Shown here in pieces: positions 1,069 to 63,395 of a stretch of 64,000 nucleotides of DNA (its first letter is position 1; the number at the start of each line of letters is the position of its first letter). Below the pieces are notes generated by a model. It was not told the origin of the DNA, searched no databases, and was given only the letters and a program-made list of their open reading frames with translations. Location: contig JBHLJY010000002.1 of NCBI GenBank assembly GCA_048887225.1, positions 347,773-411,772 of the forward strand, written 5' to 3'. Made by a program: the position numbers and the translations under genes. Source of the stretch: Candidatus Hodarchaeota archaeon. Lineage in GTDB: Archaea; Asgardarchaeota; Lokiarchaeia; Sigyniarchaeales; SOKP01.

Positions 1069-2151
1069 TTGATAATTAAAATGGATCGTAGGTATAATTC
1101 GATTGATATATTGCGAGCTCTCGCAATAATCGAAATGATTACAGGACATATTTATATGTTAATGACAAATCAGAATTATTGGATAATAGGATTTCTTTTT
1201 GTTTTACTCTTTGGAACTTGGGCTGAAGCTATTTTTCTTGGATGTGCAGGAACAGGTTTTTTTTTATATATTAATAAGAGAATTAAGAATGATTGGTCGA
1301 AACGAAAAATTTTTATTGAAATTTTAAAAAGAGCGGCATTCCTTTTTTTTATAACCCTTATAATACTGCTAAGTTTTGGTTTTATTTTTGATATGCATAT
1401 TTCATTTATTATTTACTGGAGTATTTTTCAAGTTATCGCGTTTTCCATGTTATTGTTCTTTTTTATACCCTTTTTTAAAAAAATTTATAGAAGAATTATA
1501 ATAATAACTTTAATATTTACTATTTATTTTGGGTACGTGATCATTAAGTATAATAATATTGAGATTCTTTTTATTTTAGTGTCCGGTGGAGCCTTTACAT
1601 ATTTACCCTGGGCAAGCTTTTATTTAATTGGGATATTAATTGGGGATTTAATATTAAATACTGAAATTGAAGTATTTAAAAAAATTTTGACAATGCCTCT
1701 ATTATCAGGAATAATCCTTCTTGTTCTCTCTCTTTTTTGGCTTAATAATAATACATTCAATATTGATAATTTAATAATATTACATATCACAGCATATGCA
1801 GGATATTTTATACTGTTCTCATTAATCTTTTTTTTAACTGATGTCAAAGAAATTAAATCTCCTTTACAAGTATCTTTAGTCAGGTGGGGAAAAGTATCAT
1901 TTTCACTTTATTATATACATTTTATTGTTATAATTGCAGGTTTAATCATTGCTCCTTTAATTATTAGTAATTTCACCACGAAAGGTTTACAAATATATCA
2001 GTATTTTATATTTGTTGCAATCACCATATTAATTATTGAAATCTTTTCAAGGATATGGGAGAAATATGATTTTATTTTTGGAATTGAATGGATAATGAAC
2101 CTAATTTCTAAAAGATCTCCAATTAATAAACAAATTAATGAAGAAGGTTAG
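1069..2151 (+). CDS. HGSNAT/DUF1624-like membrane acyltransferase
   Basis: N-terminal RYNSIDILRALAIIEMITGH motif (R..sIDxLRG.A...M...H family), about 10 TM segments. Confidence 0.75.
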   Translation: MIIKMDRRYNSIDILRALAIIEMITGHIYMLMTNQNYWIIGFLFVLLFGTWAEAIFLGCAGTGFFLYINKRIKNDWSKRKIFIEILKRAAFLFFITLIILLSFGFIFDMHISFIIYWSIFQVIAFSMLLFFFIPFFKKIYRRIIIITLIFTIYFGYVIIKYNNIEILFILVSGGAFTYLPWASFYLIGILIGDLILNTEIEVFKKILTMPLLSGIILLVLSLFWLNNNTFNIDNLIILHITAYAGYFILFSLIFFLTDVKEIKSPLQVSLVRWGKVSFSLYYIHFIVIIAGLIIAPLIISNFTTKGLQIYQYFIFVAITILIIEIFSRIWEKYDFIFGIEWIMNLISKRSPINKQINEEG

Positions 2152-57452: not shown

Positions 57453-58178
57453 TTATAATAAATTAAGCACTTTTTTTTGTATTTGGATTAATTCTAAAAT
57501 ACCCTTCTCTCCTATTTCTAATATTTCATTTAATTTCTGTTTTTTGAAAGTAGATCCTTCAGCAGTTCCTTGTATTTCAATGTACTCTAGAGTATCGTTG
57601 ACTTCACTCATTATTAGATTAATGTCAACATCTACATTAGAATCTTCATTATAGTCCAAATCTAATAATATATCATTATTTTTTATCCCTAATGAGATTG
57701 CAGCAGTCACATTATAATCTGGAAAATTATAAATTAACTGTTCGTCGTAAAGATACCTAATAGCATCAAAAACAGCTACAAACGAACCTGTAATAGAAGC
57801 ACATCTAGTACCTCCATCAGCTTGAATAACATCACAATCAATACGGATAGTGCGCTCTCCCAATTTTTCATAATTAAACGCAGCACGCATACTTCGTCCA
57901 ATTAATCTTTGTATCTCGTATGTTCTTCCTTTTACTCTTTCTCTTTCTCTGGAATTTCGAATTTGAGTAGCTCTTGGTAGCATACTATATTCTGCTGTAA
58001 TCCAACCAGTGCCAGTATCAGCTAAGAAGCGAGGCACAGTCTCTAAAACTGAAGCTGCTACAATTATTTTTGTATTTCCTTGAGAAATTAAAACTGAGCC
58101 TTCTGGATACTTAAGATAATTCCTTTGTATCGTTGTTTTCCTTATCTCATCTGATTTTCTTCCATCAAGTCTTAGCAT
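57453..58178 (-). CDS. rph: ribonuclease PH (bacterial type)
   Basis: GWITAEYSMLPRAT, GRTYEIQRLIGRS, DCDVIQADGGTR, EIQGTAEG. Confidence 0.93.
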   Translation of the reverse strand: MLRLDGRKSDEIRKTTIQRNYLKYPEGSVLISQGNTKIIVAASVLETVPRFLADTGTGWITAEYSMLPRATQIRNSRERERVKGRTYEIQRLIGRSMRAAFNYEKLGERTIRIDCDVIQADGGTRCASITGSFVAVFDAIRYLYDEQLIYNFPDYNVTAAISLGIKNNDILLDLDYNEDSNVDVDINLIMSEVNDTLEYIEIQGTAEGSTFKKQKLNEILEIGEKGILELIQIQKKVLNLL

Positions 58179-58288: not shown

Positions 58289-59389
58289 TCAAGTTAATGG
58301 ATATGATCCTAATATTTTATGCCAAATAACATGGTCTTTTATAGTTTCAAGTACTTTTTTGATTTTTGGATCATCCTTATCGCCTTCAAAATCCATAAGG
58401 AAAATATATTCCCATCTACCCTTTCTCCTTGGACGAGATTCAATTTTAGTAAGATTAATATCAGCTTCAGCGAAAATTCTTAAAACTCGATATAACGCAC
58501 CAGGGACGTGTTTAGTGACATATACTATTGATGTCTTAATTTTTCCCTCTTTCAATTCATTCTCCTTCTTAGAAATGACAAGAAATCTAGTGAAATTATC
58601 AGGGATATCATCTATCTTAGAACTTAATATTTTTAACTCATATATATTACTAGCAATTACAGTGCCTATTGCAGCTTTAGTTTCATCATTTAATTCTTTT
58701 ATTCGTTGGACAGCAGCAGAAGTTGACGTCGTAGAATGCAGTTCAGCTGTAGGTAAATTAGCTTTTATCCAACCTCTTGTCTGAGCAAAGGCTTGTGGAT
58801 GCGAATATACAGATTTTATTTTCTTTAAACTTGCCTCATTTAAAGAAATTAAATTTTGGCTAATTCTTAATTCAATTTCACCATATATAATTAAATTTTT
58901 CTCGATTAAATAATCCAAAGTTTCTCGAACAGTCCCTTGAAGACTATTTTCTATAGGGATTACTCCATACTCTATAATATCTTTTTCAATATTTTCAAAT
59001 ATATCTAAAATACTTTTACAAGGGATAAATTCTGAACTAGCTTTAGGAAAAAATTCTAATGCAGCTTGATGTGTAAACGTTCCTTGAGGGCCTAAATATC
59101 CAACTTTAAAGATTGAGCCTTGGATAGCCTTACTTGCTCCCATAATTTCCTTCCATATTTCCTCAACACTTTCTGGCTTAAAAACTGTTGATTTTTCTTT
59201 AACTCTGTTAATGATTTCTTTTTCTCTTTGAGGTTGATATACCTCTAAATCTAATAATTTCTTATTATTCGCTATTCTTAATACTATTTCTCCCCGCATA
59301 TTAAGAAGCTCAATAATACTATCATCAATTTTATTAATTTCTTTTCTCAAATCCTCCAATTCTTTCTCGAATCTTTCATTTTCACTCAT
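58289..59389 (-). CDS. pheA: bifunctional chorismate mutase/prephenate dehydratase (P-protein)
   Basis: LRKEINKID..I..LL..R (CM), YLGPQGTF, PIENS, SHPQA, NFTRF, LTKIESRP (ACT). Confidence 0.95.
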   Translation of the reverse strand: MSENERFEKELEDLRKEINKIDDSIIELLNMRGEIVLRIANNKKLLDLEVYQPQREKEIINRVKEKSTVFKPESVEEIWKEIMGASKAIQGSIFKVGYLGPQGTFTHQAALEFFPKASSEFIPCKSILDIFENIEKDIIEYGVIPIENSLQGTVRETLDYLIEKNLIIYGEIELRISQNLISLNEASLKKIKSVYSHPQAFAQTRGWIKANLPTAELHSTTSTSAAVQRIKELNDETKAAIGTVIASNIYELKILSSKIDDIPDNFTRFLVISKKENELKEGKIKTSIVYVTKHVPGALYRVLRIFAEADINLTKIESRPRRKGRWEYIFLMDFEGDKDDPKIKKVLETIKDHVIWHKILGSYPLT

Positions 59390-59432: not shown

Positions 59433-61109
59433 TTAAAGAAATTTCTGTAAATCTAATTCTAAAGCTGCGACCGGAAACTCTAATTTAAAGTTCAATAATA
59501 CTTCAGGATGGATTTCCCCTATTTCACCAATATTATCTCCATTAATATAAATTTCTCCATAACGCCCCTCCAAATATGAAGCGTTTTTACTTGGCTTTAC
59601 TTTTAAGCCATCATAATAACCTAATGATGTCATAATAAAATCTAATGTAGATCTTATTTCTGTAAAATCTGCATTTTCGTGGTAAGTTACAGCAGATAAG
59701 TGTAATTCCCTTGTTGCGCCTGTTTCTGCTTTAGGTGCTAATAAAATAATATCACCTACTTCAAAAATTCTTATTGGTTTCTCTTCTGACCTGTTAAAAA
59801 GAAGAGTTTCCATTAATTTAGGTAATATTGAAGTTCTTGTTGTGTCATATTCTTTTGAAACTGGATTTGCTATTTGTACTAACTCATTCTCATTATATTC
59901 CTGTTTCATATAATTATAATGTCGTTCAGAATTAGTTAAAATGAAATTAATAACTTCCAAATAGCCAGCACCAATCATAATTGTCCTTATTTTATTAGCA
60001 AATGTTTGAGTGGGATGATATTCTCCAATACAACCTTCTCTCATCGTTAATGGTAAATTAAAATACCCGTATCCAATTGCGCACTCTTCTGTAAAATCTA
60101 CGGGATGCATTATATCACCTCGATATGCTGGAACCCATATATCTATATACCCTCGTTTTTTGGATCTTTTAGCATCCATTCTTATTTTCTTAAAACAATT
60201 TATCATTTCATCTATCGATAAATTTAGGCCAATATAATCGTTAATATAATCAATTTCTACTTCCCATTTTCTAGGATCTAAATTTGGTGTTATAATATTC
60301 TCTCCTTCTTTATAATTGACTTTAACATTTTCTATTTTCGCACCGGTATCTGCCAGCATAGTACATAAAATATTTAACGCTAAATTTACAGCATTTAATT
60401 CAGTTCCAGTTAAATCTAAAAATAAATTTTTTGTCTCATCTGTGACAGTTGTGAGTACCCCATTAATTATTGGAGGGAATGAAATGACTTCATCTTTACT
60501 ATCTAATATTACTGGATATACATCTTTTCCCTCTAATATATGGGCATATTCAATCCCTTTCTCATGATATTTTAAAATATCTTCAAGAGTCATTGTTCCT
60601 CCATCTCCGTGTAAAGGAATAAAACTTATTGAATTTGGCTTTACAGCAAGATATCTATACGGAGGGATTATTTTATCAAGATCGTGGACGCCAATAGCAA
60701 CTTTCTTTCTATCTCTTCCAACAGCCCAATGTAAGTGTTCTTGAATATTCATTAATGTTGCAACCTCGTCTTCATCTAAATCAATATCTCTAATGACTCC
60801 ACAGACTATATAGGGTCTGACTTTCTTTACACTAGGATCAACATTCATTACAATTTCTCCAGATGCTATATTATAAGAGGGGAGTCCTAATTCTACTTCA
60901 TAATAACCCTTTAAAGCTCTTGCAATCCCCTCTGGACTTGAAAAATCAGGTCTGTTTGGGTTATATTCTACTTTAATTGTTTTTTCTTTCTCATTAAGAT
61001 CTTCTAAATCTAAACTTATCCACTGTAAATCATATTCTAACTCTTTAATGTTAAGTTTTTTTCCAACTAAACGTTCTAATCTACCAAGTTTTAAATCTAA
61101 AGTAGGCAT
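59433..61109 (-). CDS. pheT: phenylalanine--tRNA ligase beta subunit (archaeal/eukaryotic type)
   Basis: PNRPD, GRDRKKVAIGVHD, SFPPIIN, R.DIMH..D..E, GEIHPEVL. Confidence 0.95.
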   Translation of the reverse strand: MPTLDLKLGRLERLVGKKLNIKELEYDLQWISLDLEDLNEKEKTIKVEYNPNRPDFSSPEGIARALKGYYEVELGLPSYNIASGEIVMNVDPSVKKVRPYIVCGVIRDIDLDEDEVATLMNIQEHLHWAVGRDRKKVAIGVHDLDKIIPPYRYLAVKPNSISFIPLHGDGGTMTLEDILKYHEKGIEYAHILEGKDVYPVILDSKDEVISFPPIINGVLTTVTDETKNLFLDLTGTELNAVNLALNILCTMLADTGAKIENVKVNYKEGENIITPNLDPRKWEVEIDYINDYIGLNLSIDEMINCFKKIRMDAKRSKKRGYIDIWVPAYRGDIMHPVDFTEECAIGYGYFNLPLTMREGCIGEYHPTQTFANKIRTIMIGAGYLEVINFILTNSERHYNYMKQEYNENELVQIANPVSKEYDTTRTSILPKLMETLLFNRSEEKPIRIFEVGDIILLAPKAETGATRELHLSAVTYHENADFTEIRSTLDFIMTSLGYYDGLKVKPSKNASYLEGRYGEIYINGDNIGEIGEIHPEVLLNFKLEFPVAALELDLQKFL

Positions 61110-61127
61110 TTTTATAATACACCCTCA

Positions 61128-62663
61128 TTAATATGATTCTTGTCTCAACCATTTAATTGGATTAATATATAAATCTCTTATATCGCTTCTGCCGAATTTC
61201 AGCATAGCTAATCTTTCGAGGCCTAAACCCCAAGCGAGAACTCTAATTGGATTTTTAATACCCCAGGGATATGTTACTTCCGGTCTGAATATTCCAGATC
61301 CTCCCATTTCCAACCATTCTGCTAATTTATCATAATAGACTGCGATTTCCATACTCGGTTCGGTATATGGAAAAAATCCTGGTCTAGTTATAACTTTTTC
61401 AAATCCTATCTTTTTGTAGAATTTTGTTATTACACCAATTAAATCACATAATGTTACGCCTTCTCCTATTACAATTCCTTCAATTTGAGTAAATTCAGCT
61501 AGATGTGACTTATCAACTTTTTCATTTCGAAAAACTCTATCAATTGAAAATACTTTTATTGGTGGGATTTCATTATTCCTATAATATTGAGCTAGCCTTC
61601 TAATAGTGGTAGCAGTTGTATGAGTTCTTAATATTGTTTTTTTTGCAATATTTTCATCCCATTTATAATCCCACCCCAATGAGCCTGAATCACCACCATT
61701 TTCATGTGTTTCTTTTACAGCTTTAACGCGATCTTTTTCAGGTAATTTTGAAACCTTAGGATTGTTTAAGTAGAAGGTATCATGCAACTCTCGAGCAGGG
61801 TGGTCTTGCGGCTGGAATAAGGCGTCAAAGTTGAAAAAAGCACTTTCAATTATTGGCCCTCTTATTTCAGTAAAACCAAGCGAAATAAATATTTCTCTTA
61901 TTTCATTGATAAGATTTATCATAGGGTGTATTTTTCCTGCTTTTAACAACGGACCTGGCTTTGTAACGTCAAAAGGCTTCAAATTAACATTTTTCCATTC
62001 TTCAGAACTTAACATCTCCGAAGTAATTTTACTTACTTGCTCTAATTCTTCAATATCCGAAATTTTGATCTTTTTACCCTTTTCGGTTAAGAATATTAAT
62101 CTCTGAGTTTTTCTTATTTTATTTATTATTTTTCTCTTATTTAATATTTCAAATTGAATTATATCATTTTTTGATAAATCTGAATAAACAATTTCATTAT
62201 TTTGCTTAAATTTATTTAAAAACTTTTCCAATTCAGTTTCAGGAAAATCTTTAGCAATCAGGAAGATTTTTTCCTCTCCAGTTGCTTTACTTTGAGCAAT
62301 CCAACGATTTTTTTTCATATTAGAAATGCCAATATAAAATATTTTCTTATCAATTTTAGCTTTTTTTGAAAAATCCTCAATGCTTATTTCTGTAATGTTA
62401 TCTTTTAATAATATTTGAAGTAATTGACGTTCTGGTAACCCCTTTTTTAAATAATTTAATCCTTCTTCATTAAGGGAGATTTGATACATATCTTTCTCTT
62501 TAAAACCTCCTAAATCTTGGTCTATTAGATCATTTACAGCAGACATAAGTACAATATAATCGATCGATAATTCTTCTGCAAGATCTGTTGCTTCACATTC
62601 AGTTCTTTTTTCTTTAAGAACTTTAAGAATATTTATTACTAGTGTTTTTAGTTTAATTGTCAT
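61128..62663 (-). CDS. pheS: phenylalanine--tRNA ligase alpha subunit (archaeal long form)
   Basis: FNFDALFQPQDHPARE, LRTHTT, FRNE, FFPYTEPS, GIFRPEV, AWGLGLERLAM. Confidence 0.96.
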   Translation of the reverse strand: MTIKLKTLVINILKVLKEKRTECEATDLAEELSIDYIVLMSAVNDLIDQDLGGFKEKDMYQISLNEEGLNYLKKGLPERQLLQILLKDNITEISIEDFSKKAKIDKKIFYIGISNMKKNRWIAQSKATGEEKIFLIAKDFPETELEKFLNKFKQNNEIVYSDLSKNDIIQFEILNKRKIINKIRKTQRLIFLTEKGKKIKISDIEELEQVSKITSEMLSSEEWKNVNLKPFDVTKPGPLLKAGKIHPMINLINEIREIFISLGFTEIRGPIIESAFFNFDALFQPQDHPARELHDTFYLNNPKVSKLPEKDRVKAVKETHENGGDSGSLGWDYKWDENIAKKTILRTHTTATTIRRLAQYYRNNEIPPIKVFSIDRVFRNEKVDKSHLAEFTQIEGIVIGEGVTLCDLIGVITKFYKKIGFEKVITRPGFFPYTEPSMEIAVYYDKLAEWLEMGGSGIFRPEVTYPWGIKNPIRVLAWGLGLERLAMLKFGRSDIRDLYINPIKWLRQESY

Positions 62664-62762
62664 TTATCATAAAATCCTTTTTTTATTTGTTATATATTTT
62701 CTTAATCTTTAATTTATTTAAAAAAATTATTTTTAATGAGTAAATAATTAATTCAATCCGCA

Positions 62763-62808
62763 GCCAAGGGAACAAAATAAAAAATGGATTATAGCTTATT
62801 CCCTTGGC
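62763..62808 (-). promoter_or_regulatory. GC-rich hairpin in the pheS leader (putative attenuator structure)
   Basis: Perfect 10-bp inverted repeat GCCAAGGGAA/TTCCCTTGGC (62799-62808 and 62763-62772), extendable by 4 bp with G-U pairs. The 26-nt spacer contains UUUUUUAUUUUG. Confidence 0.7.
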
Positions 62809-62891
62809 AGAATAAAAAAATCAAAGAAAAATGAATCTTGAATAAGAACCTTTAGTAAATGACAAATATTAATCCTAATAATATTGTTCAA
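62796..62891 (-). CDS. putative Phe-rich leader peptide MNNIIRINICHLLKVLIQDSFFFDFFILPRE
   Basis: TTG at 62891 preceded by GTAGGATG and a TTTATTAA TATA-like box (62922-62929). Five Phe in codons 21-26. TAA at 62796-62798. Confidence 0.55.
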   Translation of the reverse strand: MNNIIRINICHLLKVLIQDSFFFDFFILPRE

Positions 62892-62948
62892 ATTACATCC
62901 TACTCAAGAATTCACTTAAGCTTAATAAATCATATCTAAAAAAGTTTT

Positions 62949-63395
62949 CTATGATAGATTCTCTCTAATTGATGTGGAACTAATTCTTTTTTTGTTTTTA
63001 TCCTTTAAAATTGGAATAACAATTATAATCATAGGATTAAATCCTTTGTTTTCTCTGATTTCGTTCATTTTTAACGCAACTGGATAAGTTTCTTGGCTTA
63101 CTATTAAGCCTTCATATTCGGGTTCATTAATAGGAGGACCGTATGGCTCATTTAGCTCAATTATTTCAACTCTTTTCAAATCAGTAAAAGTACTCACGAA
63201 ATTTTTAATATTTCTCTCTCTGATTTTATATTCTTCTATTTTTGATGCATATTCCTTATTTTTGAGTAATTCTTGGGTAGTTAAGCCTATTACGACCTTA
63301 TTTGAAATGGATAAGGCTGTTTTGATTAAAAACTTATGTCCTTCATGGAGATGATCGAAAGTTCCTCCCATACCTATTAAATTTAAAATTGGAAT
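62949..63395 (-). CDS. coaD: phosphopantetheine adenylyltransferase (archaeal type); probable ATT start at about 63395
   Basis: GGTFDHLHEGH, IGLT, PYGP, VSQET, RISSTSIR. Confidence 0.9.
   Translation of the reverse strand: MPILNLIGMGGTFDHLHEGHKFLIKTALSISNKVVIGLTTQELLKNKEYASKIEEYKIRERNIKNFVSTFTDLKRVEIIELNEPYGPPINEPEYEGLIVSQETYPVALKMNEIRENKGFNPMIIIVIPILKDKNKKRISSTSIRENLS

Follow-up and report, generated by a model that had tools for sequence, protein, structure and literature searches.

A conserved small open reading frame upstream of pheS-pheT-pheA in a family of Asgard archaea as a candidate phenylalanine-sensing leader

Introduction

What occupies the 285-nt gap (62664–62948) between a cytidylyltransferase-like gene and the pheS-pheT-pheA genes of an Asgard archaeon, and does it take part in their regulation? 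The locus lies on the minus strand of a 64,000-nt stretch of contig JBHLJY010000002.1 from Candidatus Hodarchaeota archaeon, hereafter the window, to which all unprefixed coordinates refer. The gap houses a small open reading frame (ORF) with a cluster of Phe codons near its end, followed by a hairpin, designated P2, that contains the last codons and the stop. An earlier sequence-only reading of this DNA had proposed a Phe-sensing leader peptide that attenuates transcription of the downstream genes.

Leader-peptide attenuation is a textbook bacterial mechanism that relies on coupled transcription and translation. The leader peptide PheL from E. coli, for example, ends in FFFAFFFTFP. In the attenuation of E. 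coli pyrBI (and pyrE), the translating ribosome sterically blocks a terminator hairpin. Our literature search, whose coverage was incomplete, found no leader-peptide attenuator in archaea. In this study, we compared the locus with those of its relatives with respect to conservation, reading frame, RNA structure and promoter-like elements, and looked in the same lineage for leaders cognate to other amino acids. On balance, we lean toward the view that the gap holds a sensor of Phe-tRNA(Phe) supply that is read by the ribosome and acts in cis on pheS-pheT-pheA.

Results

Conservation of the element and its linkage to pheS

pheS orthologues were gathered from 40 relatives. The hairpin, together with the T-rich flank before it, was kept at all 18 same-family loci having upstream sequence, while none of seven loci from other families of the order carried a convincing Phe leader. 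A covariance model (R1) built from the 18 same-family sequences matched 105 of 135 genomes of the Promethearchaeia family, with exactly one copy per genome, and reached 11 of the 13 genera and, among the high-quality genomes, 30 of 36. The locus-level counts given below rest on the 40 distinct loci, out of these 105 genomes, that hold both pheS and the hairpin. At all 40, the end of the hairpin was 100–196 nt from the pheS ATG. The distance was mostly 174–178 nt and thus strikingly constant despite the varying sequence in between. The element also stayed with pheS at L002, L016, L018 and L019, whose upstream gene is either divergent or a different one. Because it is kept beside pheS under a changed neighbor, it is not the terminator of that neighbor, and the idea that the hairpin merely terminates coaD was ruled out on the same ground. 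In genome G016, the leader has lost its start codon, and R1 scored none of the five genomes of that genus.

Reading frame and Phe codons

An in-frame ORF of 20–37 codons with a start codon was present at 38 of the 40 loci (32 ATG and 6 TTG), and the TTG used in the window aligns with the ATG of the nearest relatives. When codons were counted backward from the stem with no ORF assumed, the frame was open for at least 20 codons at 37 of 39 loci, compared with 14 and 4 of 39 for the other two frames. The N-terminal two thirds of the leader is hypervariable and almost wholly different between genera; the conserved C-terminus reads (Q)DSFFFxFFILPRE. Among 36 distinct sequences, the five fixed positions were occupied by Phe in 25, 25, 33, 31 and 36, respectively, with both TTT and TTC in use, and the residue separating the two Phe groups had 11 different identities. 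Pro and Arg of the C-terminus were found in 36 and 33 of these sequences. The stop stands at a single aligned position inside the hairpin, written as TAA (24), TAG (5) or TGA (3).

The sequence-only reading had named orthologues without an in-frame Phe cluster, or with frameshifting indels, as grounds for abandoning it. The loci gave no such ground: 38 of 40 keep the frame and have 3–5 Phe among the last 12 residues. A stop kept through changes of its letters and a free spacer between fixed Phe codons are what is predicted for a sensing leader peptide; neither a non-coding U-rich tract nor a folded micro-protein would predict this pattern. We therefore describe the small ORF as a conserved, evidently translated, Phe-codon-rich leader that is physically tied to pheS across the family. 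Its presumably translated cognate codons are clustered upstream of cognate genes, as is typical of leader-peptide attenuators.

The Phe cluster before pheS, taken alone, is an approximately 2% (1-in-50) event and is weak evidence in a single genome. The G+C content of this genome is 30.5%, and 35 of 5101 small ORFs in 1730 scanned upstream regions had at least five Phe in seven residues. The earlier caution that TTT codons are common by chance was thus correct, and the significance of the cluster comes from conservation, not from single-genome statistics. Small ORFs rich in His, Thr or Cys, which precede genes for FTR, a Ras-like GTPase, YhhN and a zinc-ribbon protein, were dismissed as chance occurrences.

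Structure of the leader RNA

The predicted fold of the 285-nt gap is more stable than that of shuffled sequence (z = -3.3). P2 pairing was kept in 93.3% of cells over 42 distinct sequences, as against at most 58% when the partner was slid. The seventh pair of P2, which involves the third position of an Arg/Ser codon (AGN), was G-C in 24, G-U in 9 and A-U in 7 sequences. Twelve cells changed on both sides, a number that none of 500 shuffles reached. Since the six basal pairs never vary, we take this covariation to support P2 only moderately. The P2 loop measures 15–28 nt between the inner arm ends across loci, and its sequence is not conserved. A repeat or mobile-element origin of the stem was ruled out, given that the arm 10-mer occurs four times in the genome, two of these being the two arms, and that R1 matches once per genome.

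Regulatory codons and structure overlap in this leader, the 5' strand of P2 being built from its four final codons plus the stop. Right next to this strand are the last two Phe codons, which are nearly or fully invariant. The invariant Phe codon is 5 nt from the 10-bp stem and abuts a stem extension: the GGA of the tail UGCGGA could pair with the (A)UUC(U/C) that comes right after the last Phe codon, continuing P2 past a 3-nt bulge.

A second helix, P1, would pair GAAU(W)CUUGA (62913–62903; strand S1) with UCAAGAUUC (62841–62833; strand S2). The P1 duplex in this genome has an energy of -16.2 kcal/mol (z = -5.8). Across 29 sequences, 85.7% of cells were paired and three pairs changed on both sides, and the S1:S2 complementarity shows lineage-specific extensions. 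P1 is tentatively regarded as a second, moderately supported helix candidate. If TTTATTAA serves as the TATA box, however, the RNA would start approximately 8 nt before the start codon, leaving S1 outside the RNA. The S1 block (62915–62904; columns 34–46 of alignment A4) forms a three-codon mini-ORF, AUG AAU WCU UGA, in most relatives and reads GUG AAU UCU UGA in this genome. At four loci, the UGA of this mini-ORF is altered, and the leader ORF begins at that AUG (37 codons).

The tetramer CAAG/CTTG occurs in every conserved strand of the Phe leader (62903–62913, 62833–62841, 62799–62808 and 62763–62772). It is also found in the Trp leader described below (L065:136–141 and 196–201), as AUCAAGU before the start and ACUUGGU at the first Trp codon, and in the hairpin of the G016 Leu leader.

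Several pairings were considered as antiterminators and rejected. S1:S3 and S2:S4 comprise merely 5–6 bp and showed no covariation on inspection of the alignments, and a GGAUUUU/AAAAUCC hairpin 3' of P2 is restricted to part of one genus. An Rfam scan of 62300–63300 on both strands, with E values up to 10, returned four chance matches of miRNA or plastid type and no Phe_leader. Neither a T-box riboswitch nor any further leader family was matched in the same interval, and the P2 loops lack conserved sequence.

Leaders cognate to other amino acids

In an unbiased scan, the only small ORF of this genome with four Trp in seven residues (MFRKNLNLKVPSSTWFWVWCWHA) was located 174 nt before trpD-trpC-trpF. 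Its last codons and stop lie inside a hairpin, GCACGC-AUAGA-GCGUGC. Trp-rich leaders preceded trpD at 13 of 14 loci that had upstream sequence and no abutting gene. These loci represent four families of the order and include G+C-rich genomes, and mostly a hairpin of different sequence covers the stop. A gene for an Lrp/AsnC-type regulator is located just upstream of the Trp leader.

Likewise, a 19-codon ORF with nine Ile (MKKIIPINVIGIIAIIGII) precedes a gene for a LeuA/CimA-family synthase (HMGL-like and LeuA_dimer domains). An AU hairpin over its stop is followed by U-runs. The spacing of its start from the ATATAAATA box (Table 1) would fit a leaderless mRNA. In sister genomes, leaders ending in LLLLL were found approximately 195 nt before leuS (L107, L108 and L109, about -270 to -198; L110, about -193). 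Three sister-genome Leu leaders are followed by two interleaved 12-bp stems, i.e., mutually exclusive folds, and the G016 Leu leader is followed by a UCAAGAGAGAA/UUCUCUCUUGA hairpin. In this genome, leuS has no Leu leader and is directly adjoined by a divergent radical-SAM-like gene.

The Phe, Trp, Ile and Leu leaders all have their cognate codons 0–4 codons from the stop, adjoining a hairpin arm. Like the Phe leader, the other three combine a run of cognate codons with a stop in or beside a hairpin arm and are 147–264 nt from the structural gene. They differ from it in sequence and in hairpin. The Trp leader occurs across the entire order, while the Phe leader was found in this family only, with none at seven loci of other families. 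The presence of Trp, Ile and Leu leaders in the lineage lends independent support to a Phe-sensing role of the element. A 30-codon ORF ending in DAAAAAVVL (six Ala in seven residues) stands before a gene for a class IV aminotransferase (IlvE-like; L071 approximately 1204–1294, minus strand, contig C4) and is a possible further leader.

Promoter-like elements and neighboring features

Between the hairpin and pheS, we found a strongly conserved block composed, in order, of (CCACG)AAAGATTTAAATA, TTTAGAAA and ATATAAC. These are spaced like the B recognition element (BRE)/TATA box, proximal element and initiator of archaea, and the block stands approximately 60 nt upstream of the pheS start codon. 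Genes of this genome show an enrichment of TTTAWATA at -90 to -30; a genome-wide consensus around it showed only a weak A at -3/-4 and cannot confirm the pheS promoter. The conserved position of the block 3' of the hairpin suggests that pheS probably has its own start site there, i.e., a basal promoter downstream of the hairpin. According to the sequence-only reading, such a start would reduce the hairpin to a coaD terminator. A simple one-promoter attenuator is indeed weakened by it, but the demotion of the hairpin does not follow, as the element accompanies pheS in other gene contexts.

Relatives have a further conserved box, TTCTAATTCAAGAT(A/C)GAGC, at approximately -115 to -95 before the pheS ATG (e.g., L035, L006 and L020). 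It is about 25 nt upstream of the pheS BRE/TATA, and its core repeats the TCAAGA of S2. This box might be bound by a regulator or serve as an RNA partner. It is absent from 62664–62762 owing to a deletion of approximately 50–75 nt in this genome and its two nearest relatives.

At the other end of the gap, an A/T-rich ATTATAA-like block occupies the position matching TTTATTAA in the alignment of 29 relatives, and TTTATTAA is a candidate promoter of the leader ORF, with a predicted 5' untranslated region (UTR) of approximately 8 nt. The AAAACTTTTTTAG block is an oligo-T run on the minus strand and an oligo-A/T palindrome in relatives, which retain the block AAAAWTTTTTTAG even next to a divergent upstream gene. 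It probably serves as a terminator or insulator, or else as another TATA element.

The features of the locus, together with the Trp and Ile leaders, are listed in Table 1. The TATA-like sequence, purine-rich stretch, ORF, Phe cluster, stem and minimal ATG-TAA were all found where the sequence-only reading had placed them, and Pfam assigned the downstream genes to PheRS alpha, PheRS beta and PheA, as it had proposed. Directly 3' of pheA, on the same strand, is an RNase PH-like gene (exosome Rrp41/42-type; 57453–58178).

Table 1. Positions of the genes and sequence elements of the Phe-leader locus in the window, and of the Trp and Ile leaders
Feature	Position	Strand	Basis or description
Cytidylyltransferase-like gene (CTP_transf_like)	62949–63371	-	Pfam
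AAAACTTTTTTAG block	62936–62948	-	Immediately after the stop of the cytidylyltransferase-like gene
TATA-like TTTATTAA	62929–62922	-	38 nt before the leader start codon
S1, GAATTCTTGAG	62913–62903	-	Conserved block; 5' strand of candidate helix P1
Minimal ATG-TAA	62898–62893	-	Sequence
Purine-rich GTAGGATG	Just 5' of the leader start	-	Sequence
Leader ORF	TTG 62891 to TAA 62798–62796	-	31 codons; peptide MNNIIRINICHLLKVLIQDSFFFDFFILPRE, ending FFFDFFILPRE
S2, TCAAGATTC	62841–62833	-	Codons Q-D-S preceding the Phe run; 3' strand of candidate P1
Phe codons TTT TTC TTT GAT TTT TTT (F F F D F F)	62831–62814	-	Single-stranded linker from S2 to the hairpin
Hairpin P2	62808–62763	-	Perfect 10-bp stem, 26-nt loop
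P2 5' arm, GCCAAGGGAA	62808–62799	-	Codons L-P-R-E; stop TAA (62798–62796) at the top of the arm
T6 run	62784–62779	-	Within the P2 loop
P2 3' arm, TTCCCTTGGC	62772–62763	-	
Conserved tail, CTGCGGATT	62762–62754	-	Immediately 3' of P2
Candidate pheS promoter	62722–62691	-	TTTAAATA (62722–62715), TTTAGAAA-like block, ATATATAAC; about 59 nt before the pheS ATG
pheS (PheRS alpha)	61128–62663	-	Pfam
pheT (PheRS beta)	59433–61109	-	Pfam
pheA (CM_2+PDT+ACT: chorismate mutase, prephenate dehydratase, ACT domain)	58289–59389	-	Pfam
Trp leader	L065:156–227 = G000:C1:374997–375068	+	23 codons, four alternating Trp; trpD at L065:402–1466
Ile leader	L130:1724–1783, G000 contig C3	-	ATG 31 nt after the ATATAAATA box

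Discussion

Taken together, the conservation observed here, the frame and codon pattern of the ORF, the hairpin and the tie to pheS make it likely that the gap encodes a translated Phe-sensing leader, and we consider it also likely, at somewhat lower confidence, that this leader acts in cis on pheS. The central proposal of the sequence-only reading finds good support in the comparative data, i.e., the frame, the Phe codons and the hairpin over the last codons and stop, while the specific mechanism it had sketched is not supported. In that sketch, melting of the stem exposed a U-tract, and a stall on the Phe codons let the stem form. The former cannot be general, as the loop contains a run of at least five T at only 12 of 40 loci, and the geometry reverses the latter: a stalled ribosome would mask the 5' strand.

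A scheme that fits this geometry is offered tentatively. A short transcript driven by a TATA-like element of its own would encode a leader peptide of approximately 30 codons, of which only the C-terminus would matter: five Phe codons, then I-L-P-R-E and the stop. When charged tRNA-Phe is scarce, translation of the leader would bring a ribosome to park on the Phe codons. Its footprint, reaching approximately 12 nt past the A site, would cover the lower part of the 5' strand of P2, so that P2 could not fold and transcription from the leader promoter would proceed into pheS-pheT-pheA. With ample Phe-tRNA, the ribosome would reach the stop and depart, and P2 would fold. Aided by nearby U-runs, the folded hairpin would cause most leader transcripts to end or to be processed before pheS. 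The long P2 loops would allow the terminating ribosome to depart before the 3' strand emerges, and a separate promoter approximately 60 nt before pheS would provide basal expression of the essential synthetase. Although we favor a cis-acting sensor of Phe-tRNA(Phe) supply, this hairpin-masking form of anti-termination is, in our judgment, somewhat short of an even chance.

Several observations weigh against this interpretation. The covariation of P2 rests mainly on one pair, the six basal pairs being invariant, and no conserved fold that competes with P2, or mutually exclusive antiterminator, was found in the aligned sequences. The leader in this genome starts with TTG. The genomes compared are relatives, and the counts therefore overstate independence. 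Archaeal intrinsic termination is known to depend on oligo-U, not on hairpins, and U-runs near the hairpin are not universal: runs of at least five T were found within 30 nt after P2 at 18 of 40 loci, as against 16 of 120 control windows (13%), and in the loop or just after P2 at 24 of 40. In the window itself, the T run is confined to the P2 loop, with none within 30 nt past the stem. The BRE/TATA-like block between the hairpin and pheS persists in G016 despite the decayed leader, and most pheS mRNA may lack the leader. Finally, a ribosome at the stop codon would also mask the P2 stem, so that the scheme requires fast release.

Alternatively, the ribosome may sense Phe in the same manner with another output. 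In place of termination at the hairpin, altered RNA processing or decay, or a long-range fold involving P1, P2 and the TCAAGA box, would affect how the pheS promoter is used or how efficiently a read-through mRNA is translated or how long it persists. The 16 of 40 loci with no U-run near P2 are easier to accommodate in this way, as are P1 as a second conserved helix candidate and the constant distance from hairpin to ATG over a varying sequence. The recurrence of TCAAGA/TCTTGA in S1, S2, both P2 arms and the conserved box upstream of the pheS TATA also points in this direction. Yet no specific alternative pairing is supported: S1:S3 showed no covariation by inspection, the hairpin 3' of P2 exists in only part of one genus, and this genome has lost the TCAAGA box by a deletion of approximately 75 nt and nonetheless keeps the leader. 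We consider such an output unlikely, although it is the strongest of the alternatives.

Slightly less probable is a micro-gene or small RNA that forms a unit of its own, with a promoter and a terminator hairpin, and that would act in trans or have some other role and leave pheS to its own promoter only. The TATA-like elements before the small ORF, the BRE/TATA-like block after the hairpin and the resemblance of hairpin plus U-run to a transcript end at many loci would all suit such a unit. There is also precedent: two reports describe attenuator RNAs and leader peptides of Sinorhizobium that act in trans (PMC7298713, PMC7968998). However, a folded or binding peptide would not typically vary so much at its N-terminus or leave a residue free amid fixed Phe, and strict single-copy linkage to pheS at a fixed distance also weighs against such a unit. 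Moreover, if no sensing took place, the cognate matches at three or four further gene sets would be difficult to account for.

The nearly invariant C-terminus, with Pro in 36 of 36 and Arg in 33 of 36 sequences and a stop at one position inside a structure, recalls nascent-peptide arrest of the TnaC type, in which FFxFFILPRE would respond to free phenylalanine, not to tRNA charging, by halting the ribosome at the stop or close to it. The conserved ILPRE coincides with a P2 strand, making peptide and RNA constraints inseparable, and its conservation would be fully explained by that strand. The Trp, Ile and Leu leaders share with the Phe leader only runs of cognate codons and no peptide motif, and induction by excess Phe would have the wrong physiological sign for PheRS and PheA. 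We regard arrest as improbable.

Scarcely different in standing, and if anything a little weaker, is the idea that a transcription factor recognizes the conserved blocks as DNA operators, with TCAAGA/CCAAG half-sites repeated at both promoters, and that the ORF is incidental. With TTTATTAA as the TATA box, S1 would fall between TATA and start site and remain untranscribed, and the same core recurs upstream of the pheS TATA. A P2 loop varying from 15 to 28 nt is nevertheless unfit for a dimer site, and operators would explain neither the conserved open frame, start codon and three interchangeable stop codons nor the lineage-specific extensions of S1:S2 complementarity. A chance ORF beside the terminator hairpin of the cytidylyltransferase-like gene would accord with the abundance of Phe-rich small ORFs at 30.5% G+C (35 of 5101) and with a hairpin downstream of that gene, but can be dismissed as very improbable, since an oligo-T block already stands behind the upstream stop, the element stays with pheS beside divergent or different upstream genes, and its conservation in 105 genomes with a coding signature contradicts chance.

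A cis-acting Phe-tRNA(Phe) sensor would work like the bacterial pheM and pheL leaders while belonging outside that RNA family (Rfam Phe_leader). As in E. coli pheM-pheST and pheL-pheA, PheRS alpha/beta and chorismate mutase-prephenate dehydratase genes are preceded by a short ORF whose Phe codons cluster toward the C-terminus, and the end of the ORF falls within an RNA structure. In contrast to those attenuators, the host is an archaeon (Asgard), no Rfam match appeared at E values up to 10, and there is only one strongly conserved hairpin, with a 15–28-nt loop, and no conserved antiterminator. The leader is also twice as long, with a hypervariable N-terminus, its U-run is not universal, and a promoter-like block separates it from the gene.

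The role envisaged for the hairpin is closer to that in pyrBI, where the leader ORF likewise enters a hairpin: occupancy of the 5' strand by a ribosome, and not an alternative fold, would decide whether the hairpin forms. There, unlike here, UTP is sensed through pausing of RNA polymerase and not through hungry codons, and the system is bacterial with a canonical intrinsic terminator. Another parallel is provided by the leaderless polycysteine short-ORF attenuators of mycobacteria (bioRxiv 10.1101/834739). They share runs of a single amino acid at the head of cognate operons and very short or absent 5' UTRs, and they differ in being bacterial, in the amino acid and in having a mechanism studied experimentally. 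The TATA-to-start distances of 38 nt for the Phe leader and 31 nt for the Ile leader suggest similarly short 5' UTRs here.

Considering the Phe, Trp, Ile and Leu leaders before cognate synthetase or biosynthesis genes, we think it probable that Asgard archaea (Promethearchaeia) operate a set of ribosome-mediated sensors. The Phe leader would account for a conserved gap of approximately 285–400 nt and for an unannotated gene in more than 100 genomes. If this interpretation is true, leader-peptide attenuation, so far bacterial, would be a working part of archaeal gene control, with a distinct architecture in which the stop lies inside a long-looped hairpin, the small ORF is nearly leaderless and a second promoter secures basal expression. 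Such leaders would provide a natural handle on transcription-translation coupling and termination in archaea (oligo-U, hairpins and FttA/aCPSF1), as well as small, portable, amino-acid-responsive parts for archaeal genetics. They would also mean that the position of the ribosome is read out for gene control in archaea, in the lineage closest to eukaryotes.

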